64,000 nucleotides of DNA. Origin: Alphaproteobacteria bacterium. GTDB lineage: Bacteria; Pseudomonadota; Alphaproteobacteria; MPNO01; UBA830. Location of the stretch: NCBI GenBank assembly GCA_965243135.1, contig OZ251539.1, forward strand, positions 5,248,001 through 5,312,000, read 5' to 3'. The notes beneath the pieces were generated by a model, which ran no database searches, had not been told where the DNA came from, and saw only the letters and a program-made list of their open reading frames with translations. Below are positions 24,867 to 57,300 of this stretch, piece after piece (positions within the stretch are counted from its first letter, which is position 1; every line of letters starts with the position of its first letter). The position numbers and the translations under genes were made by a program.

Positions 24867-25179
24867 TGGCGCTCGCCGTTCGAGAATTCGGGAGTGTGGC
24901 GCTAAGGCTGCCCCGTGTCGCCCTGTCTTCACGCCGAGACGCCCGGACGCGGAACGGTTATGTCGGCGAGCGGCGCGAGGCCGGGAGAACCACATCCGTA
25001 GTCACATGCTACGGGATGAGCAGGCTCCGAATCATGAGAGTTTGGCAAGATAGGTCGTTTCGCGGCAGCGCGAGTTCAATGATTTAAGTGTCCACTCGAA
25101 AACGCTCTATCGGTTCTCAATTTTCCTGCAATGACGCGTGAACACGCATTAAAATCGGAAGAGAACCGTCAGAGGCCGA

Positions 25180-26178: not shown

Positions 26179-26290
26179 CCGTGTCGCCGCCTCCTTTTGC
26201 TTCGGCGACTCTCGCGGTTATCATAAAGGCCATAACGACTTGACGGTACTTTGCCGGGCGAGACGCGCGGTTTATTCGGAGCCAGTATCG

Positions 26291-28864
26291 ATGACATCAA
26301 TCCGGCCGGTCGATTGGGAACGGCTCCTGCTGGTTTTCATGCATGATCCGGTGGACAAGGCGCTGGACGTCGAGAGCCGCGAAAGCCGCGCCGCGCGCTA
26401 CGCGTCGACCGCTCTGGAGCGGCAGGTCGACCGGAACGAGATGGAGTCGGCGGCGGCGCTCGAGGCGCAGCTCGCGGCGATCGCGGAGCGACCGTCGATG
26501 CCGACCGCTGGATCGGACGGAAAGCGCGCGGGCGCTCCCGTCGACGGCCGGTTGCAGATACGTCACCCCGTCAGCGGCGAAAAGGAAGAAATCCATTGCG
26601 GTTCGATAGACGAAGCCGGAGTGGATAAGGTGATTGCGGGAATCGTCGGTGGCCTCGGATCCCCCAAGGAGCGATTTCTCGCCCTCTGGCGCCTTCTTCC
26701 CGAAAGGCTCGACGAGGCGTTCGACGGCCGGATGACGCGGTTGCCGGCCGATACGCGCATTCCGGATCATTCCTGGATCGACCATGCCGATATCGCCGCC
26801 GGAATCTGGGCGAGCCGCGAGCAGGGCGGGCAGGGAGGAGCCTATCTCACTTTTGCGCTGGGACCGGTGCAACCGTTCATCGAAGCGGCCCGTTCGGTGC
26901 GCGACCTCTGGACCGGCAGCGCCATTCTCTCGTGGCTTTCCTTCGCCGCCATGCGGCCGATTCTGGATCTGTTGGGGCCGACTGCGTTCGTTTATCCGGC
27001 GCTGCGCGGCAATCCGCTCATGGATCTGTGGTTGCGTAACGATCTCGGGCTGGATCGCATCCGCTCGCCCGAGCACGTCGCCCGGAAGAGTCCTTCGCTG
27101 CCGAACCGCTTTATCGCCGTCGTTCCCTGGGGGTCGGACGGCGCTCTTGCCGACGAGCTGGCCGAGCGTTGCGAGGCTTCTTCGCGAGCGGCATGGACGC
27201 GGTTGGCCGACGACGTGCGCGGGCGGCTGGCGAAGACGTTGGAGGAAATCTCTCCGGGGTGGGACAGTCTGTGGACATCGCAGGTTGGAGATTTCTTCGA
27301 TATCGCGACCACGACGGTGCCGGAGCAGGCTCTCGACGACGATGCGATGGCGAGGCTTATGAGCGGAACGTCGTTCGGGGAAACATGGCCTGAGTGCGCG
27401 GCGATACGGTCGCTCGCCACGGCCATTCCGTCGGGTGACCGCGCTGCGCAGAATTCAGCCGGCCGTTGGCAGGCGCGAATGGAATTCTCGGCGCGTCTGA
27501 CGGAAGCGAGACGATCCATTCGCCACGTGCCGGGTTCCGCGGGGCGCGCCGGGGACAAATCGCCGCCCAAATGCAGCCTGTTCGGTTCATGGGAACAGAT
27601 GGGTCCCGCGGATTTCGATCAATCGGGGCGTTTCTGGCAGGAGGTTGCCGGCAAGCTTTCGCTTGACGGCGTCAGGTTGCGCTCGAACGAGAGGTTCTGC
27701 GCAGTCGCGCTTGCCAAACGCTTCTCCGGCCCGGCCGTGCTTGCGGACGAATTCGGCCTTGACCGCCTGTCGCTGCGTTTTCCCGATACGGCGACGATCG
27801 CCGCCGCGGAATGGTTGAACGAGGCCGGCATCGACCCCGACGAAATTCGAAGGCGGTACGGCGACTGGAGCGGGCGCTGGCTGCACGGTTTCGACGACGA
27901 GGACAAGCCTCCGCCGGAGGCGGAAGCTCTGATCGCAAACGCTTTGCGCGAGCTACGCCCGAAGCGGCCGGCCTCGTATCTCGCGATCCTCAAAATGGAC
28001 GGAGACGACATAGGCAGCTGGTTGCGGGGCGACTTTTCTCCGAAGCTGCGTGACGTCCTTCATCCAGAGATCGAAAATTATTTTCAAGCGCTTGGCGACG
28101 CGGGCGTTCAGGGTCTCGACGCTCGCCGGCCTGTCGATCCCGCGTTGCATGCGTCGATCAGCGCCGCGCTGGGAGATTTTGCGGCGCGCGTCGCCCCGGC
28201 AATCGTGAAACGGCACAACGGGACGCTCATATACTCCGGAGGCGACGACCTCCTCGCTCTGTTGCCGACAATTCGGGCCACGCGATGCGCCGAGGAACTG
28301 CGACGGGCGTTTCGGGGCGAAGCCGCGCCCGACTGCGGAAGGGGCATGGGATCCAAGGCGACGGTTTCGGTTGGAATATCCTACGTCCACCACATGGAAG
28401 ACCTTCGGTTGGCGCTCCGGTCCGCAAGAGATGCGGAACGTCGGGCAAAGGAGGACGGGAAGGACGCCGTCAACCTGCATTTCATGCGGCGGTCCGGGGA
28501 GCAGGCGGGCGCTACGTTGCCTTGGCCGCTCGCTTCCTGGTTCACGGAATTGACGGAGTTGTTCGCAACCGGGGCGACCGATCGGTGGGCGTATCATCTG
28601 AGGGCGGAGTTGCCGGTGCTCGCGACGGGCGATCTGCCCTGCGAAGCGGTGGCCGCCGAGATTCGGCGGCTCGGCAATCGAATCGACGATCGGAACTGGT
28701 CGAGCTACGCCAAGAGCTCCCGGCCGGGAGAGTTGATCGCGAACTGGTGGCGCGAATATCGAGACGCTCTTTCGCCCCGAAACCTGGGTCTCGAACGGAC
28801 GCTCGTTTCGTTCGTGACCTTATGCCAGGGCGCCGCTTTCGTCGCCCGGGGACGAGAGGGTTGA
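26291..28864 (+). CDS. cmr2: Cas10/Cmr2
   Basis: MHDP, PADTRIPDHS, GPVQPFIEAARSVRDLWTGS, KMDGD, IYSGGDD. Confidence 0.95.
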   Translation: MTSIRPVDWERLLLVFMHDPVDKALDVESRESRAARYASTALERQVDRNEMESAAALEAQLAAIAERPSMPTAGSDGKRAGAPVDGRLQIRHPVSGEKEEIHCGSIDEAGVDKVIAGIVGGLGSPKERFLALWRLLPERLDEAFDGRMTRLPADTRIPDHSWIDHADIAAGIWASREQGGQGGAYLTFALGPVQPFIEAARSVRDLWTGSAILSWLSFAAMRPILDLLGPTAFVYPALRGNPLMDLWLRNDLGLDRIRSPEHVARKSPSLPNRFIAVVPWGSDGALADELAERCEASSRAAWTRLADDVRGRLAKTLEEISPGWDSLWTSQVGDFFDIATTTVPEQALDDDAMARLMSGTSFGETWPECAAIRSLATAIPSGDRAAQNSAGRWQARMEFSARLTEARRSIRHVPGSAGRAGDKSPPKCSLFGSWEQMGPADFDQSGRFWQEVAGKLSLDGVRLRSNERFCAVALAKRFSGPAVLADEFGLDRLSLRFPDTATIAAAEWLNEAGIDPDEIRRRYGDWSGRWLHGFDDEDKPPPEAEALIANALRELRPKRPASYLAILKMDGDDIGSWLRGDFSPKLRDVLHPEIENYFQALGDAGVQGLDARRPVDPALHASISAALGDFAARVAPAIVKRHNGTLIYSGGDDLLALLPTIRATRCAEELRRAFRGEAAPDCGRGMGSKATVSVGISYVHHMEDLRLALRSARDAERRAKEDGKDAVNLHFMRRSGEQAGATLPWPLASWFTELTELFATGATDRWAYHLRAELPVLATGDLPCEAVAAEIRRLGNRIDDRNWSSYAKSSRPGELIANWWREYRDALSPRNLGLERTLVSFVTLCQGAAFVARGREG

Positions 28865-30801: not shown

Positions 30802-31181
30802 TGGAGCGCACACCGACTTTGGCGCAGCGGCGGGCGCGTCATGCCTGGCATGCCGTCGAGCGCGCCCGAGCGTCGCTCGGCAAGTCCGAGTCCGAAGACT
30901 ACGCTCGCGAGGCCAAGAGATTGCCCGTGCGAATCATGACTTCGGGCCTCGGGCAGACGCTTGCCTTCATGAAGGCGAAAGAAAGCAAGGGAGGGGAGCG
31001 CCTCAGGGACGATTTGGAGAACTGGTTGCTGGTGGAGCGCAAGTTCGGCGGCAAGAACCTCATGACGACGATCATCGAAGGCGACGCGGATCTTTTGCGC
31101 CGGGCGACCGAAGAGGCGCAAGCCTACCTGCAATGGTTGACCCGGTTTGCCGAGGCCGAAATCCGCGTCGACAGCGAATAG
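30801..31181 (+). CDS. cmr5: Cmr5 (Cas11)
   Basis: TLAQRRA, LPVRIMTSGLGQTLAF, ATEEAQAYLQWLTRFAEA. Confidence 0.92.
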   Translation: MERTPTLAQRRARHAWHAVERARASLGKSESEDYAREAKRLPVRIMTSGLGQTLAFMKAKESKGGERLRDDLENWLLVERKFGGKNLMTTIIEGDADLLRRATEEAQAYLQWLTRFAEAEIRVDSE

Positions 31182-31188
31182 GAATCCG

Positions 31189-33390
31189 ATGAACTCGCCG
31201 GTACTGCCCCGCAATACGGTCAAGCTGATCGAGCAGGTGAGGCTTGCAGAACGGCATCCGGGCCTGCAGCTCGACAAGTTGTCGTCCGCAGGAGACCAGA
31301 AGAAGCAGGGTCAGCTGATCGAGAGAGTCGCGCAATGCACGGGCGACAGCGATCTGTTGTCCGAACTTTTGTCGCGTCGCGGCGAAATGCTGAAGGATCT
31401 CGACGCGCTGCGCTTTCGGGGCCGGACGGTCGGACCTATGACTCTCCATCTCGCTCGATCCGGCGCTCTCGAGAACGCAGGCATCGCGCTGCATCCGGCG
31501 TACGGTTTCGCCTGGTTGCCCGGAACCGGGATCAAGGGCATGACGCGCGCCTGGGCGGAAACGGTCTGGGCGCCCGAACAATCAGATCCGGAAGAGGCGT
31601 GGAGACTGATCGACGCCGCGTTCGGAACCAGCCCGGGGTCGGAACGGAAGAAGAGTTGGCGATCGAGCGAACCGGCCGGCGCCGAGGCTGCGGGGCGGAT
31701 CGTTTTTCACGACGCCTGGCCGATCTCATGGCCACGCCTCGAACGCGACATCGTCAACAACCATCATGCCGCCTATTACCGTGGAGAGGGCGATCCCGGC
31801 GACTGGGAAGCCCCGGTTCCTGTAAATTTCCTCGCTATCGCTTCCGGCTCCGAGTTCGAATTCGCCGTTTCCGACCGCTCGCCCAACGGCGACGATCTGG
31901 CTGAACTGGCCATGAACTGGTTGCGCGCCGCCCTGTGGCATGCGGGGGCCGGCGCCAAGACGGCGGCCGGGTACGGGCGCATCGCGCCGGTCGAGGGCGA
32001 GCGGCCTCCGGCGGCTTCGGAGCGAAGCGTCAGGTCGGAGCATTCGCTGGAACTCGTTTCTCCGGCCTTCCTCGCAGGCGCCGGGCAGAAGAAGGCGGAC
32101 TGCGATCTGCGGCCCGCGACGCTGCGGGGCTTGCTGCGCTGGTGGTGGCGCACCATGCATGCAGCCCATCTCGCACGCGGCGATCTGGCGAAACTTGAAG
32201 CGCTCGTGTGGGGCGACACGGAGACCGGAAGCGCCGTCGCGCTGGCGCTCGAGTCGGACAAGAAAAACGGTGCTCCGATCCCATACAACAAGACAGAGAT
32301 ACAGAGGGAACACAAGCTCGAAAGTTCCGAGACTCGCAAAGTGACGCAGGGCCTGTTTTATGCTTCCTATGGCATGGACGAGACGAATAAGGGCGAGCGC
32401 CAACAGCGATGGTACAGGGAAGCTGGAGATAGCTGGAAGCTAGTTCTGGCTGCGCGGGAAGGGTTCTGGAAAGAAGAAAGAATTCCGGCGCAACGCATGA
32501 TGAAGCAGGCGGAAGCGGCGCTCTGGCTTCTGACGAGATACGGAGCGGCGGGATCCAAGTCACGCAAGGGTTTCGGCGCCTTTGCGGACATTCCAATTCA
32601 ATCGGTCGGTTCTCTTGAGGATTGCGTCGCCGCGGGCAGTCGCCTTCGAGAAATATGCGGCCTTCGGTCCGGCCAATCGACCGGCACGTCAGCCCTGGAG
32701 CAAAAGATAGGTCCGGTCGAGGTAAGGACTCCGTGGAAGGATCCGTGGTACGCGCTCGACAGGATGGGTCATGTCTATCAGACCGCCGTGAAGCGCCAGA
32801 GCGGCGATAACCGGAAGGTATTCGGCTTGCCACGCAAGGTTGGGCGTCCTCCGCACCCGCTCGGCGAGCTCGAACGTCACTCGTCTCCGATGCACTGGAG
32901 CCTCGCCCGGGGATCCGATGGCGCTATGGCGATCCGCCTGATCGCTTTTCCCTCGCCGAAACTTCCGGATCTGGAAACCAGCAGGACGGTGCTGGAGGAA
33001 ACGGTGCGCCATGCCGAAAACGCGATAAAGGAAGAGGCAAACCGACCGAGAACAGGGGAAAAGAAAGTGGGCAAGCCACCGGTGAAGCCAGCTATTACTG
33101 GTATGCCGGAGAAACACGCTCGCGTGCGGGCTGTTTTGCTTCCAGAAAAGACCAAGAACCTGCATTGGAAGGCCCAGCAGGTGGATGGTCCCATGATCGG
33201 CGAAATATTCAACCACGATGAAGTGCCGGGCGATCTCGAAGCGGGCCAAGAGGTCGAACTAGTCGTATCCAGTCCTGACCAAAGAAACGGTCGCTTCTTG
33301 TGGCCAAGTCCGAAGGTGGAAGAGCGAATGACAAGAGGGCCGCAAAATCGGTCTCCACGCGGCGGCGGAAATCGGAGAAAAGGGCGATGA
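31189..33390 (+). CDS. Cmr6-Cmr1 fusion with an additional C-terminal domain
   Basis: Cmr6 motifs LHPAYGFAWLPGTGIKG, VFHDAWP and GAKTAAGYG, followed in frame by Cmr1 motifs LVSPAFLAGA, LRPATLRGLLRWWWR and GSKSRKGFG. Confidence 0.88.
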   Translation: MNSPVLPRNTVKLIEQVRLAERHPGLQLDKLSSAGDQKKQGQLIERVAQCTGDSDLLSELLSRRGEMLKDLDALRFRGRTVGPMTLHLARSGALENAGIALHPAYGFAWLPGTGIKGMTRAWAETVWAPEQSDPEEAWRLIDAAFGTSPGSERKKSWRSSEPAGAEAAGRIVFHDAWPISWPRLERDIVNNHHAAYYRGEGDPGDWEAPVPVNFLAIASGSEFEFAVSDRSPNGDDLAELAMNWLRAALWHAGAGAKTAAGYGRIAPVEGERPPAASERSVRSEHSLELVSPAFLAGAGQKKADCDLRPATLRGLLRWWWRTMHAAHLARGDLAKLEALVWGDTETGSAVALALESDKKNGAPIPYNKTEIQREHKLESSETRKVTQGLFYASYGMDETNKGERQQRWYREAGDSWKLVLAAREGFWKEERIPAQRMMKQAEAALWLLTRYGAAGSKSRKGFGAFADIPIQSVGSLEDCVAAGSRLREICGLRSGQSTGTSALEQKIGPVEVRTPWKDPWYALDRMGHVYQTAVKRQSGDNRKVFGLPRKVGRPPHPLGELERHSSPMHWSLARGSDGAMAIRLIAFPSPKLPDLETSRTVLEETVRHAENAIKEEANRPRTGEKKVGKPPVKPAITGMPEKHARVRAVLLPEKTKNLHWKAQQVDGPMIGEIFNHDEVPGDLEAGQEVELVVSSPDQRNGRFLWPSPKVEERMTRGPQNRSPRGGGNRRKGR

Positions 33391-35706: not shown

Positions 35707-35985
35707 ATGAGATATATTGTCTGCTACGATGTATCTGACGATAAAAGGCGGAGAAAGATTTCCGAAGTGCTTGATGGATACGGCGACCGCATTCAAGAGA
35801 GCGTTTTCGAACTTCCCGTTGAAAGTTCACTTATGGATAAATGCATGGGGGAACTAACGGACCTCGTAAAGGAAAGCGAGGATTGCGTGGCGATATATCG
35901 GCTTTGCGCTTCTTGCGACAGCGAACGAACCTATTTTGGGGACGCGGTGCCAGATATCGGTGAGGAAACTGCATTCGTCGTATAG
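35707..35985 (+). CDS. cas2: Cas2
   Basis: YIVCYDVSDDKRR, YGDRIQESVFE. Confidence 0.95.
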   Translation: MRYIVCYDVSDDKRRRKISEVLDGYGDRIQESVFELPVESSLMDKCMGELTDLVKESEDCVAIYRLCASCDSERTYFGDAVPDIGEETAFVV

Positions 35986-36179: not shown

Positions 36180-39100
36180 GTCGAATGCGTTGCCCCGCTA
36201 TCGAGGGGATTGAAACTTAAGGATCCGAGCCGTGGCTAGAAGAGGTCAAGCAGTTAGTCGAATGCGTTGCCCCGCTATCGAGGGGATTGAAACGGCGTCT
36301 ATCTGCCGTTCCGCCGTGTTCCGTATCGTAGTGTCGAATGCGTTGCCCCGCTATCGAGGGGATTGAAACCCATGAGAAAAAACCGCCTGATCACCAGACT
36401 ACAGCAAGTGTCGAATGCGTTGCCCCGCTATCGAGGGGATTGAAACGGGTTGGATCCGGGAATCGCAGTTCCCGGATCCAACCTCGCCGTCGAATGCGTT
36501 GCCCCGCTATCGAGGGGATTGAAACGCGTCGCCGTAATGCGTACCGAAGTACCATCCCGAAGGGTCGAATGCGTTGCCCCGCTATCGAGGGGATTGAAAC
36601 ATCTCCTCATAGGACCCGTAGAGGAGGATCTCATGGGCCCGTCGAATGCGTTGCCCCGCTATCGAGGGGATTGAAACCTTGTCCAACACCTGCGCAGCAA
36701 AGTCGCGTTCATACCCAGGTCGAATGCGTTGCCCCGCTATCGAGGGGATTGAAACGCGCTGTTGTCGATCGCCGGGAACGCGGCATCCGCAAATGCGTCG
36801 AATGCGTTGCCCCGCTATCGAGGGGATTGAAACCGTTATCACGTCGCGTTCGGTGCGGTCGGTTTCCGTAAGGTCGAATGCGTTGCCCCGCTATCGAGGG
36901 GATTGAAACCTCCTTCAAAGGATTCAATCTTCTTGACAAACTCACCCATCAGTCGAATGCGTTGCCCCGCTATCGAGGGGATTGAAACATCGCTAACCAA
37001 ATGTCGTTCTGCCAATGTTCGAAGAAGGTGTCGAATGCGTTGCCCCGCTATCGAGGGGATTGAAACGCATATCCTGCCGTAACACGCGCATAAACCTGCG
37101 GCCAGTGTGTCGAATGCGTTGCCCCGCTATCGAGGGGATTGAAACATCGCTACGGTAAAAGCCCTTCCGTGCCGCCCGGCGACAGGGTCGAATGCGTTGC
37201 CCCGCTATCGAGGGGATTGAAACGCGATAGGGGTTGTAGTCGCCGCAATTGCGGATTACGGCGTCGAATGCGTTGCCCCGCTATCGAGGGGATTGAAACA
37301 CAGGCGGGTCGTGCAGGCCCGTGCCGCGACGATGCCCGGTCGAATGCGTTGCCCCGCTATCGAGGGGATTGAAACCTCCAAAGAGTATTTGTGCTCGTTG
37401 ATTTGCAAGAGAAGCCGTCGAATGCGTTGCCCCGCTATCGAGGGGATTGAAACGTTCATCATCCACGGGGGGATAAACCACGGCTTCCGGGACGCGTCGA
37501 ATGCGTTGCCCCGCTATCGAGGGGATTGAAACAGGGCCGTGGAGCTTCCCCGCGCTATCGAGGGCCGGGGCCGCTGTCGAATGCGTTGCCCCGCTATCGA
37601 GGGGATTGAAACGCATCGCAGCGCCGGGATCGCGCCGCTGGAAGCTCTTTCTCGTCGAATGCGTTGCCCCGCTATCGAGGGGATTGAAACCGGGCCTTTT
37701 CCAAGGCCGCATCCCCGTCCAGCAGGCTATGTCGAATGCGTTGCCCCGCTATCGAGGGGATTGAAACTCGAGCTTTGAACCGTCGGAATCCCCGGAAACC
37801 TCATCTCCAGTCGAATGCGTTGCCCCGCTATCGAGGGGATTGAAACGAATCGCCCGTGAACGCATCGGAGCGAAGGCATGACGGGTCGAATGCGTTGCCC
37901 CGCTATCGAGGGGATTGAAACCGACCCGGACGGACCTGACGACGCCGGCGGAATGGGGCGCTGTCGAATGCGTTGCCCCGCTATCGAGGGGATTGAAACT
38001 TTCAGGAACTTTGCAAGGTCGCGCCAATCATGCGTTTCCGTCGAATGCGTTGCCCCGCTATCGAGGGGATTGAAACTAAGTGCACGAATAGCCGGTATCG
38101 TGCATATCGACCCGCGTCGAATGCGTTGCCCCGCTATCGAGGGGATTGAAACAAAACTGTAACCTCTTCCTGTACCGCAACGTCGCCTCCCGAATGTCGA
38201 ATGCGTTGCCCCGCTATCGAGGGGATTGAAACAACGCCCGAGCGCCCCGTAGGACGGATCGATCCCGACGTAGGTCGAATGCGTTGCCCCGCTATCGAGG
38301 GGATTGAAACTACGTTCCTTCCTCGCCGCTGGCGAGTTCCTCGTTTCCGGTCGAATGCGTTGCCCCGCTATCGAGGGGATTGAAACCGGTCGACGTCTAT
38401 GAGGCGGCCCGTAGGCGCGTCGCGTGGGGGTCGAATGCGTTGCCCCGCTATCGAGGGGATTGAAACCAAACGCTTTACTGGTCCAACACCTACGCAACAG
38501 TGTGGGTCGAATGCGTTGCCCCGCTATCGAGGGGATTGAAACCTATCGAGATCGCCGGTGGGAGTACTGGTCGTCTTCGCGTGTCGAATGCGTTGCCCCG
38601 CTATCGAGGGGATTGAAACCATGCTACGGTATCCGCCGGAGGCGGCCGACCACTTTCACCGTCGAATGCGTTGCCCCGCTATCGAGGGGATTGAAACGAT
38701 CTCATGGGCCCGATCGCAGAGGTGCATCCTGACACTGCCGGTCGAATGCGTTGCCCCGCTATCGAGGGGATTGAAACGCGGGACCAACAGATCCTGCTTG
38801 AACCGAGGTTTCGCGGCCGGTCGAATGCGTTGCCCCGCTATCGAGGGGATTGAAACCTGACTGGCAAGCGGGCTGAGCCCATGCTTGGTAGCCGCCTGGT
38901 CGAATGCGTTGCCCCGCTATCGAGGGGATTGAAACTTTCAGCGGCACGGCCGCCGTCCGGATGCAGAAAGCTCCGTGTCGAATGCGTTGCCCCGCTATCG
39001 AGGGGATTGAAACCAGTACCGACCGCGGAATGGCCAGGGCCACATGGTAGCCCAGTCGAATGCGTTGCCCCGCTATCGAGGGGATTGAAACTTGGAAGAT

Positions 39101-39867
39101 TGTGCCTTTCTTCTTGGCGTGGACGTAGCTAGGTCGAATGCGTTGCCCCGCTATCGAGGGGATTGAAACTTTCCGCATACGACGCCGCAACGTTTTCGGA
39201 TTCAATCCGAAGTCGAATGCGTTGCCCCGCTATCGAGGGGATTGAAACAAAGCCTGAATCGCAGCGTAGGACTCGCCACGCGGCTCCAGGTCGAATGCGT
39301 TGCCCCGCTATCGAGGGGATTGAAACCTTTCTCGCGGCGGCGATGCTTCCGAAAAGTGCGGTTCGTCGAATGCGTTGCCCCGCTATCGAGGGGATTGAAA
39401 CCTTTGGAATAGCTTGTTCCAGTGATAGCTTACTTGGTATCGGTCGAATGCGTTGCCCCGCTATCGAGGGGATTGAAACCCGAACGGCCTGACGCGCTGA
39501 ATGGGCCAGCTTTTCGGCGGTCGAATGCGTTGCCCCGCTATCGAGGGGATTGAAACTCGAGAACAAGCCGAGCGTCAACGAATACGCTTTCCATATCGTC
39601 GAATGCGTTGCCCCGCTATCGAGGGGATTGAAACTCCATGGTGGCATACCCACTATCCGCCGAACGGGTGGGTCGAATGCGTTGCCCCGCTATCGAGGGG
39701 ATTGAAACTAGGTTTGGCAAACGACGTCAAACTCCTCGCCCAGGCCGGGTTCGTCGAATGCGTTGCCCCGCTATCGAGGGGATTGAAACGGGAACGCGGC
39801 ATCGGCAAACGCTTTGTTTGTCCAGCAGCGGTCGAATGCGTTGCCCCGCTATCGAGGGGATTGAAAC
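36180..39867 (+). CRISPR. Type III array, 48 repeats, spacers about 37-44 nt
   Basis: 37-nt repeat GTCGAATGCGTTGCCCCGCTATCGAGGGGATTGAAAC with a CCCC/GGGG hairpin and ATTGAAAC tag. Confidence 0.97.
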
Positions 39868-40050
39868 TTGGCGCAATCTTTGCCGTCGTCGGCGGATCGC
39901 AGCGTTTACCTGTCGTGACTGGACCGCGCTGCCGGCCTGTCGTATGCTCGGATCGGGCGCTTGATGGGCTTTCCAAGAGGCAATGTCGGCGCATATGCAG
40001 GGCGAATTCAAGAATGGCGCGATCATTGCCAAGCGCCGCCCTCGAGGAGG

Positions 40051-40266
40051 CAGCAGCGGCGCGAGATCCGCGTCGGCGGGACGATGGCGGCGCGAAGAGA
40101 CGGCAGCGGCGCGAGATCCGCGTCGGCGGGACGATGGCGGCGCGAAGAGACGGCAGCGGCGCGAGATCCGCGTCGGCGGGACGATGGCGGCGCGAAGAGA
40201 CGGCAGCGGCGCGAGATCCGCGTCGGCGGGACGATGGCGGCGCGAAGAGACGGCAGCGGTGCGAGA
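40051..40266. repeat. 50-bp tandem repeat, about 4.3 copies, inside the IS
   Basis: Unit CGGCAGCGGCGCGAGATCCGCGTCGGCGGGACGATGGCGGCGCGAAGAGA at 40051, 40101, 40151, 40201 and partially at 40251. Confidence 0.95.
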
Positions 40267-40286
40267 GGCGGGCCACCGGTCGGACG

Positions 40287-42047
40287 TCAGAAGACCTCCG
40301 TGGTCAGATCTCGAACGGCCTGACGCGAATCGTAGTGTCGGTGGGCCTGCGGCAGATAATCGAATCGTCCGCGCAACCGAACGATGGAAATCGCGGCGTT
40401 GCGAATCGAAGCCAGTGCACGGGCGCTGCTGCCGACGTGGTTGCGGCGGCGGTCCTCGTCGTAAGTCATGTCGCGAACATGATGCACCCGGTTCTCGATT
40501 TCCCAGTGACGGCGAGCGATGTCGAGAATTTCGGCAGGTCCTCCGCGCGACGGCGGGATGGAAGTTACCCCGTAAGCGATTTCCGAAGTTGTCCCGACGA
40601 TCTTTCCCTTTCTGAGTTTCTGACGTATGCGTTCGATACGGAATGCTTGCCGTCGTCCGGGCAGTTCGACGTACCCGTCCCAAGTTTTGTCGAGTTCGAC
40701 GACCAGACAACTGCGAGTGTCGATTCGACCGTGCGTTTTTTCCATCGTCTCGCTTTTACCGACTGCCTGATCGTTCCAGTCAATCGCTTTCAGATCGTCG
40801 AGTATCGTTTTTTGGTTGCCCTTGACGATCATCAAATAGTCAGCTCCCCTGTCCAAGATCAACTGGGTAGTTTCGACCTGGGTATGCATGGCGTCGGCGG
40901 TCACAATACGTCCGGACAACTGCATGCTTCGCAACAACTTTCGCGCAGCCGGAATCTCGTTTGACTTGTCTGCGACTTTCACCTGACCGCAAATTAGTCC
41001 GGTTTCGTGCTCGACGGCTCCGACCAGATGGCATCCGTCTCCATGCCGTGACGCTCCGCGCACGGATTTTCCGTCGAGGCTTCCGTTGGGATCCTGGTAT
41101 TGTGCGGTCCATTCTCGCAAAGCCTTGTCAAGGGCTTCCGGGTCGACATTCGAAAGCACGCGATGGAAGGTCGAATAGCTCGGGGCCGTCCGGATTCCAT
41201 CGCCTTTCATCCATGAGCGCACTTCCGCCAGCTGCGATTGATTCAACTTCCCGGAAAAGTCCGCTATGGCGGTTAGACTGAAAAAACCGCACAGTTGCGC
41301 CGCTATTGCGATGGCGAGGACCGTCGCCAACTGATAGCGCTGACCGCGACGACTTCGGAAGTCCGGCACCGTACTTAAATACTGGTACAAACTCCCCATT
41401 CTGTGATCCGGTATCTCGTCTACGTTCAATGTCTTGCAGTTCCAGAGCTTATTGTCGGAAAGCATGCAAAATTGCTTGCGGGCATCCTTTTCCAGTTCGA
41501 GCATCAGAATTTTTCTGGACGTTCCGTGTTCGCGGTAACCACCGCCCGATATGCGCTCGTATCCTTTTGTGAACCCAACGGCTCGCCAGTTCGCCGCCTG
41601 GTAACACGTTCCCTCGAAACGGTCCGGATCTACAAAAGTCTCCGCCATCAGAACTGGATGGTCATATGCTGCCTGAAAGTCAGCCGACAGGCGCCGGGTG
41701 CTGAGGGACAAAATATGGGACGTCAGGTTGTGTCGCCGCCAGGGCGGAAGAATCAACAAGCGCGCGTTGTTCGCCACAAGATGCAACCGGCGGCCGCGCT
41801 GCTCGGGCGTCCAGCCAATCCACTGGTCGCGCGCCCGCAGCCGCCAGGCCCCGGCTTTCCAACCAAGCAACGCCACCCATTCTCCGTCCGGGGCCACGGC
41901 GACATGCCGCACCGCCTCCCCGACCATGCCCCGAAATTCGAGGTAGTGGTGTTTCCGCATCGTCTCGTCCCACCGGTCGCGTTCCGCCGGGTCGAGCACC
42001 GGCCGAACGGCGATGTCGTCCGGCTCCCGTATGTTTTTCGTCATCAT
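40287..42047 (-). CDS. DUF4338-ISAs1 transposase fusion
   Basis: N-terminal HHYL, VANNARLLILP, AETFVDP, YQAANW; C-terminal VPDFRSRRG, DGKSVRG, KSNEIP, TADAMHTQ, VKGNQ, RRHWEIEN. Confidence 0.88.
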   Translation of the reverse strand: MMTKNIREPDDIAVRPVLDPAERDRWDETMRKHHYLEFRGMVGEAVRHVAVAPDGEWVALLGWKAGAWRLRARDQWIGWTPEQRGRRLHLVANNARLLILPPWRRHNLTSHILSLSTRRLSADFQAAYDHPVLMAETFVDPDRFEGTCYQAANWRAVGFTKGYERISGGGYREHGTSRKILMLELEKDARKQFCMLSDNKLWNCKTLNVDEIPDHRMGSLYQYLSTVPDFRSRRGQRYQLATVLAIAIAAQLCGFFSLTAIADFSGKLNQSQLAEVRSWMKGDGIRTAPSYSTFHRVLSNVDPEALDKALREWTAQYQDPNGSLDGKSVRGASRHGDGCHLVGAVEHETGLICGQVKVADKSNEIPAARKLLRSMQLSGRIVTADAMHTQVETTQLILDRGADYLMIVKGNQKTILDDLKAIDWNDQAVGKSETMEKTHGRIDTRSCLVVELDKTWDGYVELPGRRQAFRIERIRQKLRKGKIVGTTSEIAYGVTSIPPSRGGPAEILDIARRHWEIENRVHHVRDMTYDEDRRRNHVGSSARALASIRNAAISIVRLRGRFDYLPQAHRHYDSRQAVRDLTTEVF

Positions 42048-42572
42048 GGTCGGCACATTGGCGGCAAAACCTGGAAATGTCCAGAAAAAAATTATCCGCC
42101 GGTATTTCCGATCATTCACCCCCTTCTTGAAAAGCCGTGCGCGCTGTCCGCAACGCCTTGAAATGCGGATAGCTTTCAGGAGTACCGAATTTTTCCTCGG
42201 GTACGGAAAGCTGCGAATTCTTCGCGCTGGGACCGCGATTTTCGCAGATTCCACCCCACGGCCGGCCCCCTGGCCACCTACGTTCAGGCCACGGCCCGGC
42301 TCGCCCCGGGTTTGCGGCGCGGCAACACTCGCCTTTTGTTCCGAAGTCTGAGCGTCCGCGAGGCCCTTGCGGGTTGCCGACGGGCGGGCGGAGCGGACCG
42401 CGATGCGTCGGCAGGGCGGCGGGTCGAAAAAAATGGCGCAGCGCAAACGGCTCTTGAACGGCCTTTTCCTTGCATTATCATTAGGTTAGCCTGAAAGATA
42501 AATTCGCCCTGGCGCATATGCGAGGGCGCGGACCTCAGTCTCTGGGCGATCTATCGTTGGCGGGAGACAACA

Positions 42573-42980
42573 ATGACGATGCCTGAATCGGCGACTCACA
42601 CTCGATTCCTGCGGCGCGATCCGGTGGAAGAATCTGCAATGCGGAACATGGCGTTCGCATCGGCGCTGGAATCGCTGGACGTGGACGCGCTGCGGCGGCG
42701 CTACGGCGATGCGGATGGTGCTACGGCGACGGCGGATGCGCTGATGGATGCTGCCGACGCGCTGCGGGCGGTGGCGGATCATATCGTCGGCGCGGAACGC
42801 GCTGGATCGAGAGCGCTGGCGCTCGCGACATCTACGGCCGCGCTGGCAATCGCGCTGGCTGCCACATTCGGACCGGACGACCTGCGGCGGTCGCTGCAAT
42901 CCCGGCCGGCGATGCGGCCGGCGGACCTGGACAAGACGGCGAATCTGATCGCTGCTTTCGCTGGCGCGATGGATGGATAG
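42573..42980 (+). CDS. Hypothetical Ala-rich protein, 135 aa
   Basis: GGGAGA RBS about 5 nt before the ATG and GC3-rich codons; no recognisable motif. Confidence 0.6.
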   Translation: MTMPESATHTRFLRRDPVEESAMRNMAFASALESLDVDALRRRYGDADGATATADALMDAADALRAVADHIVGAERAGSRALALATSTAALAIALAATFGPDDLRRSLQSRPAMRPADLDKTANLIAAFAGAMDG

Positions 42981-43207
42981 GTCGGGCGGGCTGCCTGTCG
43001 GCGCGGCCTGCGATCCCTGCGGGCTGAGATAGGGTATTCGCGGCGCGGGATACCGCTGGCGGCCAAAAGCTAGGCGGATTGAAGTGGCGCAATCTCATTC
43101 CGCCGGCAACGGCGATCCCGGAATGAAATGGGTGCGGACCGGTAAGACTGGACCGATAGCGGAACGAGATCGCGGCGCTTCAACCGCTGTCGCCGAACTT
43201 GCAATAA

Positions 43208-43244
43208 GTCGAATGCATTGCCCCGCTACTGAGGGGATTGAAAA
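43208..43244 (+). CRISPR. Solitary or terminal degenerate type III repeat
   Basis: GTCGAATGCATTGCCCCGCTACTGAGGGGATTGAAAA, 33/37 identical to the array repeat, stem intact. Confidence 0.9.
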
Positions 43245-43262
43245 AAGCTGGTTTTCCAGCTT
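43241..43262 (-). terminator. Intrinsic terminator downstream of csx1
   Basis: Minus strand AAGCTGG-AAAA-CCAGCTT followed by a T-run, 35 nt after the stop. Confidence 0.7.
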
Positions 43263-43297
43263 CACCGGCCGAGTGGCGGTTTCCGTGGAAGCATATG

Positions 43298-44515
43298 TCA
43301 CCATCCCAAGATTGAACGCGAACTATCCAACAATTTTTGGAAGGATGTCTCCAATTCGCGGTAAAGGCGATCTCGATCCGTGAGCACATTGCGGTACCAA
43401 TTGTCAGGACCGGGACCGTGAGCGAGGCTGTTACGGATATTCTGTAAATTCCGGTAGGACGTTCGTAGCCATGGAGGTTTCGTGTGTAAATTTGATTCGA
43501 AAATTTTGACAGCGTTCTTGCGTTCCTCGAAATCGGTAGCGGACACGCCCTGAGCGCTGCATATGCGATTAGCGAACGCTTCCCATCCCAGCATGGCTGC
43601 GCGAACGAAGTCGTCTCGTTTGAGGTATTGATACGCCAGCAATCTCTGCTGCGACGCCAAGTCGGGCTCGTTCGCCCATCGCAATCGTGCGGTAAGCCGA
43701 CGTTGGAAGAGACCGGATGCGCCATCGAGGCGATCGTCTAGCGCAGGAAGGAAAGCCCGGAGCTTGTGCGCGGCGTCGCGCACGTTGAGGGTGCGCTCGT
43801 AGAATGCCGCATCCTTCAGGAGGTTGGCCATGTTGTCCTGTACGCCGTCGTCAATCAACAGCCGTTCGAAAACCCCGTAATCGCCGGTAGCGTCGAATCG
43901 GTCCAAGGCGTCTATCCAGTGTCTGACGCGGATCAGGCCATCGAGTTTCAATACCGGGGTGACGCCGTCGCGCGTCATGTCGAGCGCGCCATACCACAAA
44001 CTGCGGACGTTCAGGTTGCTGATGCGCTCCAACATGAACGCTGAGAGGAACCCGACCATGCCGAGATGACGGAATCCGTGAGTCAGGTCGAAGCTGACGG
44101 CGCCGTTCGGCACGGCTTCGGCGACGACGTCCAGGATGGCGTATTGCTCCTCCGCATTCTGGCCGAACGGGATAAGGCGCGGGTGCGCATCGCGGCCGAT
44201 GCCTTTTCTCATAAGTGGCGCCAATTGGTCGAGAAGAGGTTGGCGAACTGCATGATCGGCTTCGGCCTCGAGCAGCGTAAGGCGCACGTCCTCTTCGGTG
44301 CCGTCTTCTGCCAAGTGTTCGACCAGAACGCTCCACTGACTGCTGCAGGTGCCGAGGATGACGGTGGAGTCGGGATCGAGATACTGCGACAACGCCAGTC
44401 CAAAAAACGCTGTTTCGTGATTTGTCTTGTCCGGGAACTGGTAGACCGTCTTCCGATATCCGGCGTTTTCCGTCATTCGGCTCTTGCCGAGGAACGTGAC
44501 AAGTGTGTGATTCAT
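43298..44515 (-). CDS. csx1: Csx1-like CARF-HEPN ribonuclease (TM1812/TIGR02221-like)
   Basis: TLVTFLG, ILGTCSSQW, FDLTHGFRHL, HEPN RNSLAH. Confidence 0.88.
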   Translation of the reverse strand: MNHTLVTFLGKSRMTENAGYRKTVYQFPDKTNHETAFFGLALSQYLDPDSTVILGTCSSQWSVLVEHLAEDGTEEDVRLTLLEAEADHAVRQPLLDQLAPLMRKGIGRDAHPRLIPFGQNAEEQYAILDVVAEAVPNGAVSFDLTHGFRHLGMVGFLSAFMLERISNLNVRSLWYGALDMTRDGVTPVLKLDGLIRVRHWIDALDRFDATGDYGVFERLLIDDGVQDNMANLLKDAAFYERTLNVRDAAHKLRAFLPALDDRLDGASGLFQRRLTARLRWANEPDLASQQRLLAYQYLKRDDFVRAAMLGWEAFANRICSAQGVSATDFEERKNAVKIFESNLHTKPPWLRTSYRNLQNIRNSLAHGPGPDNWYRNVLTDRDRLYRELETSFQKLLDSSRSILGW

Positions 44516-48183: not shown

Positions 48184-49299
48184 TCAGCTTTCGAGGGCGA
48201 CGACGCGGCCGTCGGCGGCGCGCCCCTGCCGATGATAGTGCCCGATCTTTTCGAGCAGCGGACGGACGCTGTACAGGATTGCGTCTTCGGTCTCGCTCTC
48301 GTTCGCGAATCGGTGCCAGGCGCGGCCTGGCACCACGAAAAGGTCGTTTTGGCTCCACTCCAAACTTTCGCCATCGACCTCGGCGCGGCCCTTGCCGGCG
48401 ATTACGGCGTGAAAGGCGCCGGCGGTCGAGCGGGTTTCGGCCGTGACTTCTCCCGGTCGCAACAGCGTTGCCGAATAGCCGAGCGTCTTGAAGGAGGCGC
48501 CGCCGGACGCCGGGTTGGAGAATTCCGCCGTCACCGCATCCCAAGAAGTGCCGGCGACGTCTCGCATGCCGTCGAGCGCGGCGCGGATGTCCGCGCCGCG
48601 ATAGTGGAACATCGGCGAGTCCCCGCGGCCGGACGGAGGTGTCCGCGGCACGATGCCGCCCGTTCCGTAAAGCCGCTTCGACAGGCCCTCGTTCAAAGGC
48701 GTTCCGTTTGCGCCCTCCTGATCAATCCAGATGGCGTCGAGATATTCCAGCAGTGGCCAGTCGAGCACGTCGATCACTGGCGTGTCCGAGTCGTTGCCGT
48801 GGCCGTGCCACGTGCCCGCGGGCGTCAGAATCAAATCGCCGCGCCCGGCGGCGCAGCGCTCTCCCTCGACCGTCGTGTAGCCTCCGCCGTCCGACAGGAT
48901 CGTGCGGCTGGCGTTCGGCGTATGGGTCTCCGCCACGTCGCCCGGCTTGTAGATCGAAACGGCGACCCGGATCGAGGCGGTAACCTTAAGAGCGCCGCCG
49001 AACCCGGGATTGGTCAGGAGAAATTGCTGCCGCTCCGTGAATTCCAGCGGCGCGATCGCGGCGATGCGATGAAGATAGGGTTCGTATTCGGTCCATCGCC
49101 ACAGGCAGGGCGCGGCGCGCCCGGGCCGCGCCTGGGGCGGAAGATCCGGACGGTGCCATGGCGGATGCATGGCCGCGTTGGCCTGCGTCCTCAGCCAGAT
49201 GTTGAACCGCGCCGCTTCTTCGTTCATCCGCTCCATCTCGGCCAGCGCGGCGGCGGGCAACTCCGGAGCGGCCAGCGTTGGGCGAAGCTCTGCCGTCAT
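48184..49299 (-). CDS. Bicupin, gentisate 1,2-dioxygenase-like
   Basis: LTNPG, YTTVEGE, GDLILTPAGTWHGHGN, DLFVVPGRAWH. Confidence 0.8.
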   Translation of the reverse strand: MTAELRPTLAAPELPAAALAEMERMNEEAARFNIWLRTQANAAMHPPWHRPDLPPQARPGRAAPCLWRWTEYEPYLHRIAAIAPLEFTERQQFLLTNPGFGGALKVTASIRVAVSIYKPGDVAETHTPNASRTILSDGGGYTTVEGERCAAGRGDLILTPAGTWHGHGNDSDTPVIDVLDWPLLEYLDAIWIDQEGANGTPLNEGLSKRLYGTGGIVPRTPPSGRGDSPMFHYRGADIRAALDGMRDVAGTSWDAVTAEFSNPASGGASFKTLGYSATLLRPGEVTAETRSTAGAFHAVIAGKGRAEVDGESLEWSQNDLFVVPGRAWHRFANESETEDAILYSVRPLLEKIGHYHRQGRAADGRVVALES

Positions 49300-49303
49300 C
49301 GGT

Positions 49304-50368
49304 TCAGACTCCCTCGATCACGTCCGCCCAGCTCTCGATCGTTTCTGGCAGGCCGGTACGGACATGGGTGCTGAACAGAGTGTAGCCCATGTCTCCGAGG
49401 GCGCGAATCCGTTCGCGCAACTCCTCCTTCGTGCCGGACATGGTTGTGGCGCGAATCAGATCGCCCGTGATCAGATGCTTCTCTTCCGGGCGCACCGTCA
49501 TCAGATGGTTCTTGTGGTTCGACAGGTAGCGGGCTTCCTCCGGTTCGTAGCGCCGGTAGATCTCAAGGTATTCATCGCGCAAGCCTTCCATGCCCGGCGG
49601 CAGCCGCGCGCCGAGAGAGCCGAACTCTTCCGCTTCCGCGAGGTCGTGCAGAGCGACGGCCGCCGACGGACCGGCCTGGTCGCGAACGTAATCGGCGTCC
49701 CAATCGCCGGATCGTCGAAGCACCGCGCCGCCGCAATTGGCGTTCGCCGTAAGGTCCGCGGCGTCGCGGCCCGCCTCGGTCCAGACCCGTTTCATCTCGC
49801 CGATAGCCGCTTCCGCCCGCGCCGGAGATCCGACGGAGTTCGTCCAGCCGTATCCGCGTTCGGCGATCATGCGGCGTCCGCGCGGACCGAACGCGGATAC
49901 ATGGACGGGAATGGGGTCGGCGATGTTGATCAGGCCCAGTTCCGGGTTCATGAACCGGACGAGGCGTTTCCTGCCCTCTATCTCGGCCGCCGTGGTTTCG
50001 CCCTTCAGAAGCCGCTCCACCGCGTCGACGTAATCGAACATGGCCTTCAGCCCCATCGGACCGAGACCCATCGTGCGGCGTCCGGTGAAGCCGGTCCCGA
50101 CCCCGAAGTCTATCCGTCCGGGCGCGAGAGCGTTGAGGCTCGCGAGCGCGCTGGCGGCGACGGGAGCGAGCCTGTTCGACGGGATCAGCACGCCGGTTCC
50201 CAGCCGGATGCGCTCCGTCTTCATGGCCGCGGCCGTCATCGAGACGAACAGTTCCGCATTGATGAGTTGCGAGTCGATGAACCATGCCTCGTCGAAGCCC
50301 AATTCCTCCGCGCGCCGGACGAGTTTCCACGAGTCGGCCGCGGGCGCGATGCTGATGCCGAATTTCAT
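49304..50368 (-). CDS. LLM-class flavin/F420-dependent oxidoreductase
   Basis: MKFGI, AEELGFDEAW, TERIRLGTGV, APGRIDFGVGTG; GGAG RBS. Confidence 0.88.
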   Translation of the reverse strand: MKFGISIAPAADSWKLVRRAEELGFDEAWFIDSQLINAELFVSMTAAAMKTERIRLGTGVLIPSNRLAPVAASALASLNALAPGRIDFGVGTGFTGRRTMGLGPMGLKAMFDYVDAVERLLKGETTAAEIEGRKRLVRFMNPELGLINIADPIPVHVSAFGPRGRRMIAERGYGWTNSVGSPARAEAAIGEMKRVWTEAGRDAADLTANANCGGAVLRRSGDWDADYVRDQAGPSAAVALHDLAEAEEFGSLGARLPPGMEGLRDEYLEIYRRYEPEEARYLSNHKNHLMTVRPEEKHLITGDLIRATTMSGTKEELRERIRALGDMGYTLFSTHVRTGLPETIESWADVIEGV

Positions 50369-54375: not shown

Positions 54376-57300
54376 TTAGGTGTATCCGGCGTGCGGGGGA
54401 AGCTGTCCGCCAGCCGTAGAGGGACCGGACGACGAAGGTACATCCCCGCGTGTGCGGGGGAAGCTCGGTCCACAGCGCGTCGACCGCGTTGACGAAAGGT
54501 ACATCCCCGCGTGTGCGGGGGAAGCACGACTAGGGCGATTTGCTTCACGGTATAGTCGGGTACATCCCCGCGTGTGCGGGGGAAGCATGCCGGGGGAACG
54601 CGCAACGCATCCCCCCGGCGGTACATCCCCGCGTGTGCGGGGGAAGCTTCCGGCCCGGCCTGGAGAATCCGCCTGCTCGGGGTACATCCCCGCGTGTGCG
54701 GGGGAAGCTTTCACTGGCCGTTTCCGGTACCGCGTTTATCGGGTACATCCCCGCGTGTGCGGGGGAAGCATAGAATCTTTTGAGAAAAGAACGTTTATTA
54801 CGGGTACATCCCCGCGTGTGCGGGGGAAGCCGGATCCTGCTGTGCGCCGAGCGCGTGGCGGTCGGTACATCCCCGCGTGTGCGGGGGAAGCTGATATGAG
54901 ATTCACGGACGTTTTGGCGGTTGGGGTACATCCCCGCGTGTGCGGGGGAAGCTTCGGCCGGTAGAAAGGTCATGCATCCAGCTCAGGTACATCCCCGCGT
55001 GTGCGGGGGAAGCGCCGCGACAAACCGAGGCGACCACCTCGTCCGGGGTACATCCCCGCGTGTGCGGGGGAAGCCGAGCGATGACCGCAATTCCGAGACT
55101 GCAACCGGGTACATCCCCGCGTGTGCGGGGGAAGCCTGGCGCCGGCGGACGAACATGACGGCCCGCGCGGTACATCCCCGCGTGTGCGGGGGAAGCTTCT
55201 CCAGCGTTTGCGAGCATCACATGATGCCGGGTACATCCCCGCGTGTGCGGGGGAAGCCGTCTTCCACCGACGGCAGCCCGTGCACGATGCGGTACATCCC
55301 CGCGTGTGCGGGGGAAGCCGGTTCTGACGGCCGCGGAAGCGCGGAAGGCTGGGTACATCCCCGCGTGTGCGGGGGAAGCATGCAGACTAAGGCTTGAAAG
55401 GCTTGCGGTTTACGGTACATCCCCGCGTGTGCGGGGGAAGCCTTCCTGAAAGGATAACGGACATGACCAAGACGGGGTACATCCCCGCGTGTGCGGGGGA
55501 AGCGAGCTCGCGTCGGACCTCCTCATGCGCCTCTCGGGTACATCCCCGCGTGTGCGGGGGAAGCACCTTGAAGCTGGCCGGCTGACCCTTCGACAAAGGT
55601 ACATCCCCGCGTGTGCGGGGGAAGCTACCGGCGATAACGGCGATAACGAGAAACAAAAGGTACATCCCCGCGTGTGCGGGGGAAGCCGTGAGACTTCATA
55701 ACTCAGACTCCCATATGAGGGTACATCCCCGCGTGTGCGGGGGAAGCAAGGTGACGTGTTCGATTACTTCGACCCGGACGGGTACATCCCCGCGTGTGCG
55801 GGGGAAGCAGCCCGAACCAGTCGCGCCCGCGCTTCCGCAACGGTACATCCCCGCGTGTGCGGGGGAAGCCGCGGCCTGCGCAATCTCTTCGTCGTCAGGA
55901 AAGGTACATCCCCGCGTGTGCGGGGGAAGCCCTACGGAAGCGAGTCCCTGGTACTGCGTTTCGGGTACATCCCCGCGTGTGCGGGGGAAGCCGTCACAAC
56001 GGGAGATAAAAAGATGACGACCACGGTACATCCCCGCGTGTGCGGGGGAAGCCTGGATCGCCGACGGCGGAATGCCGTTCAACTTGGTACATCCCCGCGT
56101 GTGCGGGGGAAGCCGGAAAAACTGGTGGGACAACTGCACGCTCCGCGGTACATCCCCGCGTGTGCGGGGGAAGCTGCCGACAGCCAGAATGTCCCTGAAC
56201 CGCATCGGGTACATCCCCGCGTGTGCGGGGGAAGCTCCTCAACATGATCGAAAAGAAGGGCGTTACCAGGTACATCCCCGCGTGTGCGGGGGAAGCCGCG
56301 CTCTGACGTTTTCCGGCAATTTTGCCGAGGGTACATCCCCGCGTGTGCGGGGGAAGCGTGATGTCGACCCACAACGGGGAATCGAATCCGGGTACATCCC
56401 CGCGTGTGCGGGGGAAGCCCGCCGTTCCCGGCGGAAGTCGAACCAGCATCAGGTACATCCCCGCGTGTGCGGGGGAAGCGCGTTGCGTTCGACGATTTGC
56501 CCTTCCAGACGGGGTACATCCCCGCGTGTGCGGGGGAAGCGTGGGCGCCTACGCGCGGGAGCGCGACGCCCATGGTACATCCCCGCGTGTGCGGGGGAAG
56601 CCTCGTCCACTGCCCCTCGACCAGGAACTCCAGAGGTACATCCCCGCGTGTGCGGGGGAAGCGATAGCGAGGCCGTCGAAGAAGCGGAGGAGGGCGGTAC
56701 ATCCCCGCGTGTGCGGGGGAAGCGCCGGGCGATACCGGCGGACGTGCTGTACCACGGGTACATCCCCGCGTGTGCGGGGGAAGCCCGTCCTGGACCGCCG
56801 GGATCGTCCTGCAGCTGGGTACATCCCCGCGTGTGCGGGGGAAGCGGGATCGTCCGGGTCCGCACGGGCAAGCGCACCGGTACATCCCCGCGTGTGCGGG
56901 GGAAGCTCGAACGCCGCCTGGCGTCGCGCCGTCCGGTCGGGTACATCCCCGCGTGTGCGGGGGAAGCCAGCGTCGACCAGACCAAGCGGGACGGCTACGC
57001 GGTACATCCCCGCGTGTGCGGGGGAAGCTACGGCCGCGCGCGGGTCCAGGTGCAGACGCACGGTACATCCCCGCGTGTGCGGGGGAAGCAGCTGGCAGTT
57101 GGTGAAGGTGGACGAAATATCGGGTACATCCCCGCGTGTGCGGGGGAAGCGAAATCGCCAACCGGACGGTCAAAGCGCATCGGGGTACATCCCCGCGTGT
57201 GCGGGGGAAGCTGACGATTGCCGGCGGACGCGGACCCGCAACCGGGTACATCCCCGCGTGTGCGGGGGAAGCTCACCCGGTAGACGCAGGCGGCGCGCTT

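Follow-up and report, generated by a model that had tools for sequence, protein, structure and literature searches.

The interval between the last two repeats of a type III-B CRISPR array was analysed within the window, a 64,000-nucleotide (nt) stretch from an Alphaproteobacteria bacterium (contig OZ251539.1 of assembly GCA_965243135.1). It holds a 135-residue open reading frame (ORF135), a long hairpin and an insertion sequence (IS) of the ISAs1 family. With confidence somewhat above even, we read this region as the rearranged distal (oldest) end of the array, which was later hit by the IS, with no dedicated cargo module in it; it is a real but probably functionless instance of decay at an array end combined with insertion of an IS. 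The original prediction had taken the same DNA for a cargo unit flanked by Cas6 sites; its account of the anatomy is confirmed. Such a functional reading is currently unsupported, and nothing positive backs a gene function. The internal copies of the junction between repeat 48 and its following spacer point to an origin by rearrangement. All positions below are those of the window.

Structure of the interval between repeats 48 and 49

The array consists of 48 identical 37-nt repeats at 36180-39867 (starts 36180 to 39831), separated by 47 spacers of 37-44 nt. Repeat 48 (39831-39867, plus strand) is the last canonical 37-nt repeat and ends in ATTGAAAC. The next repeat in the same orientation, repeat 49, lies at 43208-43244 (plus strand), and once the IS and one copy of its target duplication are set aside, 817 nt separate the two. 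By length this interval is no ordinary spacer when compared with the 47 regular ones. Its first 44 nt (39868-39911, plus strand), referred to here as spacer 48, fall within the regular range, and one other spacer of 44 nt is present in the array. The remaining 773 nt agree with the approximately 770 bp originally estimated for the unit.

Spacer 48 is followed by GTCG (39912-39915, plus strand) and then by a left unique segment (39916-39997, plus strand), which contains the first copy of the IS target duplication. The normal 44-nt spacer and the GTCG behind it had both been described in the original prediction, and both are there. The same four letters had also been taken as the first 4 nt of a repeat, and this part did not hold up. 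GTCG occurs at 1.07% of genome positions, which gives a chance of ~0.08 that it starts 38-45 nt past a repeat, and it was counted 10 times inside the interval against 8.7 expected. No further similarity to the repeat was found beyond 39912-39915. As the match is within chance (P about 0.08) and no repeat similarity comes after it, the proposed stub is no evidence of a truncated repeat. Nor were hidden decayed repeats found inside the interval, where the best candidate matched 19/37 positions and the mean maximum of shuffled sequences was 19.0.

Repeat 49 is a degenerate terminal repeat which matches the consensus at 33/37 positions. None of its four changes falls in the CCCC/GGGG stem, and repeats 48 and 49 share the same predicted 4-bp hairpin of -8.0 kcal/mol, in line with the earlier description of a same-orientation, stem-intact repeat at 43208. 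Against the Rfam model CRISPR-DR10 (plus strand; gathering score 39), repeat 48 obtained 42.1 bits and repeat 49 obtained 35.7 bits.

The principal evidence for rearrangement comes from sequences resembling the junction of repeat 48 and spacer 48. Copy A, the junction itself, comprises the last ~13 nt of repeat 48 and the first ~30 nt of spacer 48 (39855-39898). Copy B (43072-43117, plus strand) is a diverged direct copy of A with small indels, and its score of 31 was reached by 0/1000 shuffles. Copy B' (43159-43187, minus strand) is an inverted junction copy that agrees with B at 25/30 positions, again with a score that none of 1000 shuffles reached. Together, B and B' constitute a 30-nt imperfect inverted repeat (arms 43074-43103 and 43159-43187) and pair with each other over 43073-43188; the imperfect hairpin so formed is long, stops 20 nt short of repeat 49 and has a folding energy of -61.2 kcal/mol. 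The region had been called hairpin-rich; it is essentially this one hairpin. Some changes that set B and B' apart from A are common to both, so that these two copies arose from one another once they had diverged from A. The direct and inverted junction copies are read as the scar of duplication and fold-back-type rearrangements, and the three copies A, B and B' would fit successive duplications. Targeting of copy B' by CRISPR RNA (crRNA) 48 was also considered and was rejected, as the manual alignment needs indels after 6-7 nt.

The composition of the unit bears on the time of its arrival. The G+C content of its right part is 0.657, close to the 0.650 of the genome and different from the 0.565-0.571 of the neighbouring cas1 and csx1. 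The host-like composition, unlike that of cas1 and csx1, therefore suggested that trapping took place after the island had settled in this lineage, so that the DNA of the unit may have arrived after the CRISPR island did. Besides the repeats, no other Rfam family and no tRNA were found in the interval, and no other copy of the unit was found in the genome by BLAST. The right part (686 nt) gave just chance-level matches of 34-47 nt in 3 of 40 relatives, and the right part (687 nt) showed no similarity to plasmid and phage records. No array spacer matched the unique parts of the unit. A transposon or a miniature inverted-repeat transposable element (MITE) was rejected as the identity of the unit on the grounds that terminal inverted repeats are lacking, that the genome contains the unit only once and that its GTCG "duplication" has P ~0.08; an inverted repeat pairing its two ends was seen neither among the 25 of 34 pairs listed nor in the end sequences.

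A sequence of events that would account for these features can be outlined. Before the IS arrived, 817 nt would have lain between the last regular repeat and an old degenerate terminal repeat, as a mosaic of a spacer-like start, unique DNA of host-like G+C content with an orphan ORF, and two diverged junction copies, one direct and one inverted. Duplication and inversion by illegitimate recombination at the junction of repeat 48 and spacer 48 would have trapped foreign or reshuffled DNA. The interval would be transcribed solely as the tail of the precursor crRNA (pre-crRNA). Cas6 would cut repeat 48, where cleavage is predicted before 39860 and would leave the 8-nt handle ATTGAAAC; the position follows from the general rule of an 8-nt crRNA handle. 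After 3′ trimming, the handle and ~40 nt would stay with the Cmr complex and serve as a crRNA 48 of the ordinary kind. Such trimming in type III systems makes a downstream Cas6 cut unnecessary. The remainder of the transcript, including ORF135 and the hairpin, would be a by-product with no role in interference.

Several observations weigh against the reading as a rearranged array end. The hairpin at 43073-43188 is very stable (z = -4.38, with 0/200 shuffles as stable), and its arms are closer to each other than to A, so that the structure could have been kept by selection. The similarity of A and B beyond ~45 nt is not significant alone (81/1000 shuffles), and the exact path of rearrangement is not reconstructable. 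The IS-free unit also persists in other samples although it is flanked by direct repeats able to delete it. As for the reading frame, the coding score of ORF135 exceeds that of 87% of the 1523 spurious ORFs of comparable length and is near those of neighbouring cas genes (cmr4 0.003, cas1 -0.015); it has a well-spaced GGAG and is the best among the overlapping frames. A single-sequence AF2 model of its product is helical and moderately confident, with a mean predicted local distance difference test (pLDDT) value of 67 that rises to ~80 over residues 21-70.

The ISAs1-family insertion and the IS-free form

The IS occupies 39998-42511 (2514 bp, minus strand), as delimited by the ends of genome BLAST matches and by loose ends at 39998 in 4/4 runs. 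It is bounded by the two copies of a 9-bp target duplication, GCGCATATG, which lie at 39989-39997 and 42512-42520, and carries 11-nt terminal inverted repeats, CAGGGCGAATT. Target duplications of 8-10 bp are typical of the ISAs1 family. The transposase (40287-42050, minus strand, 587 aa) matches NF033564 ISAs1 with 215.5 bits against a cut-off of 70, and is composed of a DruA/DUF4338-like N-terminal domain followed by DDE_Tnp_1_assoc and DDE_Tnp_1. Five further near-full-length copies with 85-91% identity are present in the genome. Transposase, terminal inverted repeats, target duplication and additional copies all place the element in the ISAs1 family.

In this strain, the IS inserted later, 61 nt upstream of ORF135. 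That the insertion is the later event follows from the 9-bp duplication and from an empty-site allele found elsewhere. In run X4, labelled a sponge metagenome, a 924-nt contig (record 9) aligns with 39838-39987 and then directly with 42511-43291, which makes it an exact empty site with a single copy of the 9-bp target. The contig differs from the window at 1 position on the left, and at 20 positions plus 7 gap letters on the right. A second IS-free form was recognized in a 232-aa predicted protein, P0004, from a 4,490-nt contig, whose frame runs through a repeat, a spacer, a repeat, spacer 48, the left unique segment and ORF135 without the IS. In run X1, which belongs to the isolate itself, contigs free of errors span both junctions of the IS. 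Runs containing the stretch belong to 3 studies, and the genome probably derives from one of these. From the empty-site contig of X4 and the IS-free P0004, it is evident that the IS is late and strain-specific and that the ancestor of the sampled population already had the 817-nt interval.

The proposal to look for the IS-free unit in other genomes was thus borne out by the X4 contig and P0004, but no independent homologs were obtained with which linkage to type III repeats could be assessed. All copies observed represent a single orthologous locus, and the linkage test is empty because neither ORF135 nor the 687-nt right part has relatives in the searches. An exact 27-mer of the type III-B repeat was found at 0 loci of the GTDB contigs, and a degenerate 37-mer was found at 1 locus. 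As a separate observation on P0004, its penultimate spacer, the one before repeat 48, differs from that of the window while spacer 48 and the unit are conserved, and its repeat 48 differs by one residue in translation, from which it follows that the 8-nt handle is altered.

The IS itself contains further elements. Between the start of the transposase gene and the end of the IS, a nested element of ~320 bp occupies ~42132-42452; it is missing from the other IS copies, which have their joints at 42108/42124 to 42452. Dozens of partial copies with 66-97% identity occur in the genome, and the element looks like a high-copy repeat of MITE or repetitive extragenic palindromic (REP) type. Past the stop codon of the transposase gene lie ~4.5 tandem copies of a 50-bp unit (40043-40292), and its copy number varies among contigs and genomic IS copies (skips of 171-212 nt).

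It had been suggested that the IS may silence ORF135, and this is plausible, as it may cut the ORF off from the array promoter. However, the conserved end of the IS bears an outward sigma-70-like site at 42454-42481 (plus strand; TTGAAC, a 16-nt gap and TATCAT; 9/12 positions), 92 nt before the ATG of ORF135. Silencing is not the sole possible outcome for this reason; judging from the motif, the site could drive ORF135 rather than leave it silent.

ORF135 and the rival explanations

ORF135 (42573-42980, plus strand, 135 aa) has a GGAG 6 nt before its ATG, exactly as the original prediction of a reading frame led by a ribosome-binding site had it. No match was found for it in Pfam, NCBIfam, PHROGs or PADLOC. 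Among 5.8 billion clusters it fell solely in its own cluster of four near-identical members, and a full HMMER pass over 1.84 billion representatives returned, besides ORF135 itself, two long low-complexity proteins only. No relatives were found in GTDB contigs and JGI metagenomes, and a six-frame search of 400 other genomes of the class gave noise of 17-20 bits only, in 14 of them. Foldseek comparison of its model with the PDB gave no match at E <= 0.001, and the Atlas gave no usable match. No significant match to a profile, structure or sequence cluster thus links ORF135 to a known protein family.

Whether the frame is used was approached through its coding score, which was calculated per base with a 3-periodic Markov model trained on the long genes of this genome. 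The score of 0.004 is below that of 95.7% of true gene windows. In composition, the product contains 25% Ala, 10% Arg and 0.7% Lys, and a hydrophobic stretch spans residues 81-99 (Kyte-Doolittle value 1.88). The cluster members P0001, P0003 and P0004 each lie one residue away from ORF135, with two substitutions in all, which is too close for selection testing; P0004 has 2 changes in its 84 translated upstream codons. In the X4 contig, a word-share test of whether the differences avoid the ORF gave an observed value of 0.53, where a uniform distribution predicts 0.34-0.41 and a spared ORF predicts 0.60-0.63. On balance, we doubt slightly that ORF135 is translated at all, and the proposition that it is a gene likewise falls a little short of even confidence.

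The idea of an array-embedded gene supposes that the pre-crRNA extends through ORF135 and that Cas6 cuts at repeats 48 and 49, which would release a handle-bearing mRNA for a type III accessory protein, toxin or regulator. We consider it improbable. Two same-orientation repeats with identical predicted stems do flank the unit, cas6 is present in the locus, and neither strand showed a terminator-like site between the repeats. ORF135 has its Shine-Dalgarno sequence, an intermediate coding score and a helix, residues 81-99, that is hydrophobic; other samples have kept the unit in the same array context, and the hairpin at 43073-43188 is unusually stable. These points are set against the failure to find any homolog, and hence any independent CRISPR linkage, and against an amino-acid composition that is as expected from a chance frame in DNA of 65% G+C. 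The 3′ part of the Cas6 product is normally trimmed in type III systems, which speaks against a stable handle-bearing mRNA, and in this strain a 2.5-kb IS with a transposase opposite in direction separates the unit from the array promoter. A more specific version treats the unit as a "giant spacer" gene in which the pre-crRNA serves as mRNA precursor. Here, Cas6 cleavage at repeats 48 and 49 would free an RNA of ~850 nt with a crRNA handle and guide at its 5′ end and a 3′ untranslated region capped by the 30-bp hairpin of guide copies, and expression of a small, possibly membrane, protein would be coupled to array transcription and Cas6 activity. This version we regard as decidedly improbable. 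If it were true, cargo that encodes proteins could be carried in arrays and processed along with them, which would add a layer of regulation new to type III systems; with one lineage and no homologs, the cargo claim is not justified by the data.

Two further explanations concern the origin of the unit, as does the favoured rearrangement of the array end. A repeat-like sequence or mini-array of a mobile element could have recombined with the host array and decayed to ~770 nt, with repeat 49 and B/B' as leftovers of the repeat/spacer unit that the element brought along, and it has been proposed that viral genomes integrate into arrays when a solitary repeat unit recombines with a host repeat (PMC8616872, citing Faure et al. 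2019). The four positions at which repeat 49 differs from all 48 others and the extra junction copies adjoining it would suit such a remnant. Nevertheless, the 687-nt right part resembles no phage or plasmid record, ORF135 has no PHROGs match, no integrase or other mobile-element gene is left, and the G+C content of the unit equals that of the host. A degenerate terminal repeat is, moreover, the normal state of an array end, and repeat 49 needs no foreign origin. We hold a mobile-element remnant to be as improbable as the array-embedded gene. The second explanation assumes two former arrays, in which the main one ends at repeat 48 with a trailing spacer, while repeat 49 survives from a collapsed second array that had the 770 nt as its leader. 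Repeat 49 is indeed isolated and stands beside a second block of CRISPR-associated genes (csx1), but the similarity of the unit to the real leader is not significant (48/300 shuffles score as well), its G+C content of 0.64-0.67 contrasts with the 0.469 of the leader, the adjacent DNA has no second cas1-cas2 pair, and the junction copies speak against it. We regard two former arrays as very improbable.

Should the region be only the scar of a rearranged array end, it offers a clear worked example of array-end decay, in which a junction was duplicated and inverted, DNA other than spacers was trapped and an IS struck later, in an array that still has 48 perfect repeats. It also matters for automatic annotation, as array finders would end at repeat 48 or call a "spacer" of 3.3 kb.

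The surrounding locus and comparison with known systems

The window contains a complete type III-B (Cmr) locus, with cas10/cmr2, cmr3, cmr4 and cmr6 (plus cmr1) and with cas6 beside the array. The matches of the cmr genes to TIGR02577 (212.9 bits), TIGR01888 (116.5), TIGR02580 (253.9), TIGR01898 (108.2) and TIGR01894 (34.5) all exceed the cut-offs of these models. The cas6 gene lies at 25180-26178 on the minus strand (PF10040, 47.7 bits), cmr2 at 25961-28864 and cas2 at 35707-35985; cmr3, cmr4, the cmr6/cmr1 ORF, a CARF gene, cas1, the leader (G+C 0.469) and the plus-strand array make up the rest. A single ORF of 747 aa at 31147-33390 (plus strand) matches Cmr6 over residues 110-279 and Cmr1 over residues 302-479, and may be a cmr6-cmr1 fusion or an ORF call extended too far.

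Downstream of repeat 49, a CARF-HEPN gene of the Csx1 type, csx1 (TIGR02221, 151.1 bits against a cut-off of 76.25; PDLC01825, E = 1.6e-131), lies at 43298-44515 on the minus strand, convergent with the array, and plsY is found beyond it. A terminator-like hairpin for csx1 is seen on the minus strand at 43241-43262, with a 7-bp stem (43245-43262) followed by a U run; it is not among the sites reported by the consensus terminator scanner. Its U-tract corresponds to the run of A with which repeat 49 ends on its 3′ side, and the last base of the repeat, changed from C to A, is part of it. Relatives of csx1 with 42-67% identity were found in metagenome-assembled genomes of many phyla, with Poribacteria, Binatia, Vicinamibacterales, Gamma- and Alphaproteobacteria, Spirochaetia and Nitrospira among the groups represented, which suggests that this type of gene has spread widely by horizontal transfer. 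The type III-B array repeat was found within the fetched flanks of 0/43 loci of these relatives.

The window as a whole is a three-array CRISPR island. The second array (17243-24870) comprises 116 repeats at a period of 66 nt, the last of them degenerate, and the third (54437-59160) has 78 repeats with a 61-nt period; no irregular intervals, that is, none outside 55-90 nt, were found in either of them, and the long interval before repeat 49 is an exception within this island. A spacer of the type III-B array, at 37613-37653, matches 49042-49071 (minus strand) at 28/30 positions, 11 kb downstream. The matched site lies inside overlapping long ORFs at 48184-49299 (minus) and 48232-49374 (plus), and may be a partial self-target of this spacer.

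A published protein-coding ORF enclosed by the last two repeats of an array was not found by a keyword search limited to open-access text, and we make no claim that it is absent from the literature. Both arrays interrupted by an IS and terminal repeats that have degenerated are familiar, the insertion of IS6110 in the direct repeat (DR) locus of Mycobacterium tuberculosis reportedly being an example of the former. As in such interrupted arrays, a complete IS with its target duplication sits inside an array here and is polymorphic between strains. The present case differs in that the IS entered an already abnormal 817-nt interval, and not a repeat or a normal spacer, and in that the IS carries a nested high-copy element and a 50-bp tandem array.

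In leader-distal degenerate terminal repeats, a general feature of array ends (see also PMC12839519), only the last repeat is likewise mutated (4/37 positions in our case), at the end opposite the leader and cas1-cas2. Repeat 49 departs from them in its distance from the previous repeat, 817 nt in place of ~41 nt. With CrePA (bioRxiv 10.1101/2024.01.05.574328) and CreTA, CRISPR-repressed toxin-antitoxin modules, the region shares a small gene of unknown family beside repeat-like sequences, with partial spacer copies nearby. In CrePA, the pseudo-spacer matches a site flanked by a protospacer-adjacent motif ~120 bp upstream of the toxin ORF and the system is DNA-binding type I-F. Here, the system is type III, and the spacer-48-like copies lie downstream of the ORF, 92-207 nt past the ORF135 stop and not at its promoter, with repeat-handle sequence and indels; such a make-up suggests debris of the array, not a target. 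Viral solitary repeat units, mini-arrays and RNA anti-CRISPRs (PMC8616872, PMC10651486) similarly present an isolated, slightly diverged repeat beside non-spacer DNA. Those, however, sit on mobile elements, whereas repeat 49 is chromosomal, has no phage or plasmid similarity around it, and stands at the end of an array of 48 spacers beside cas genes.

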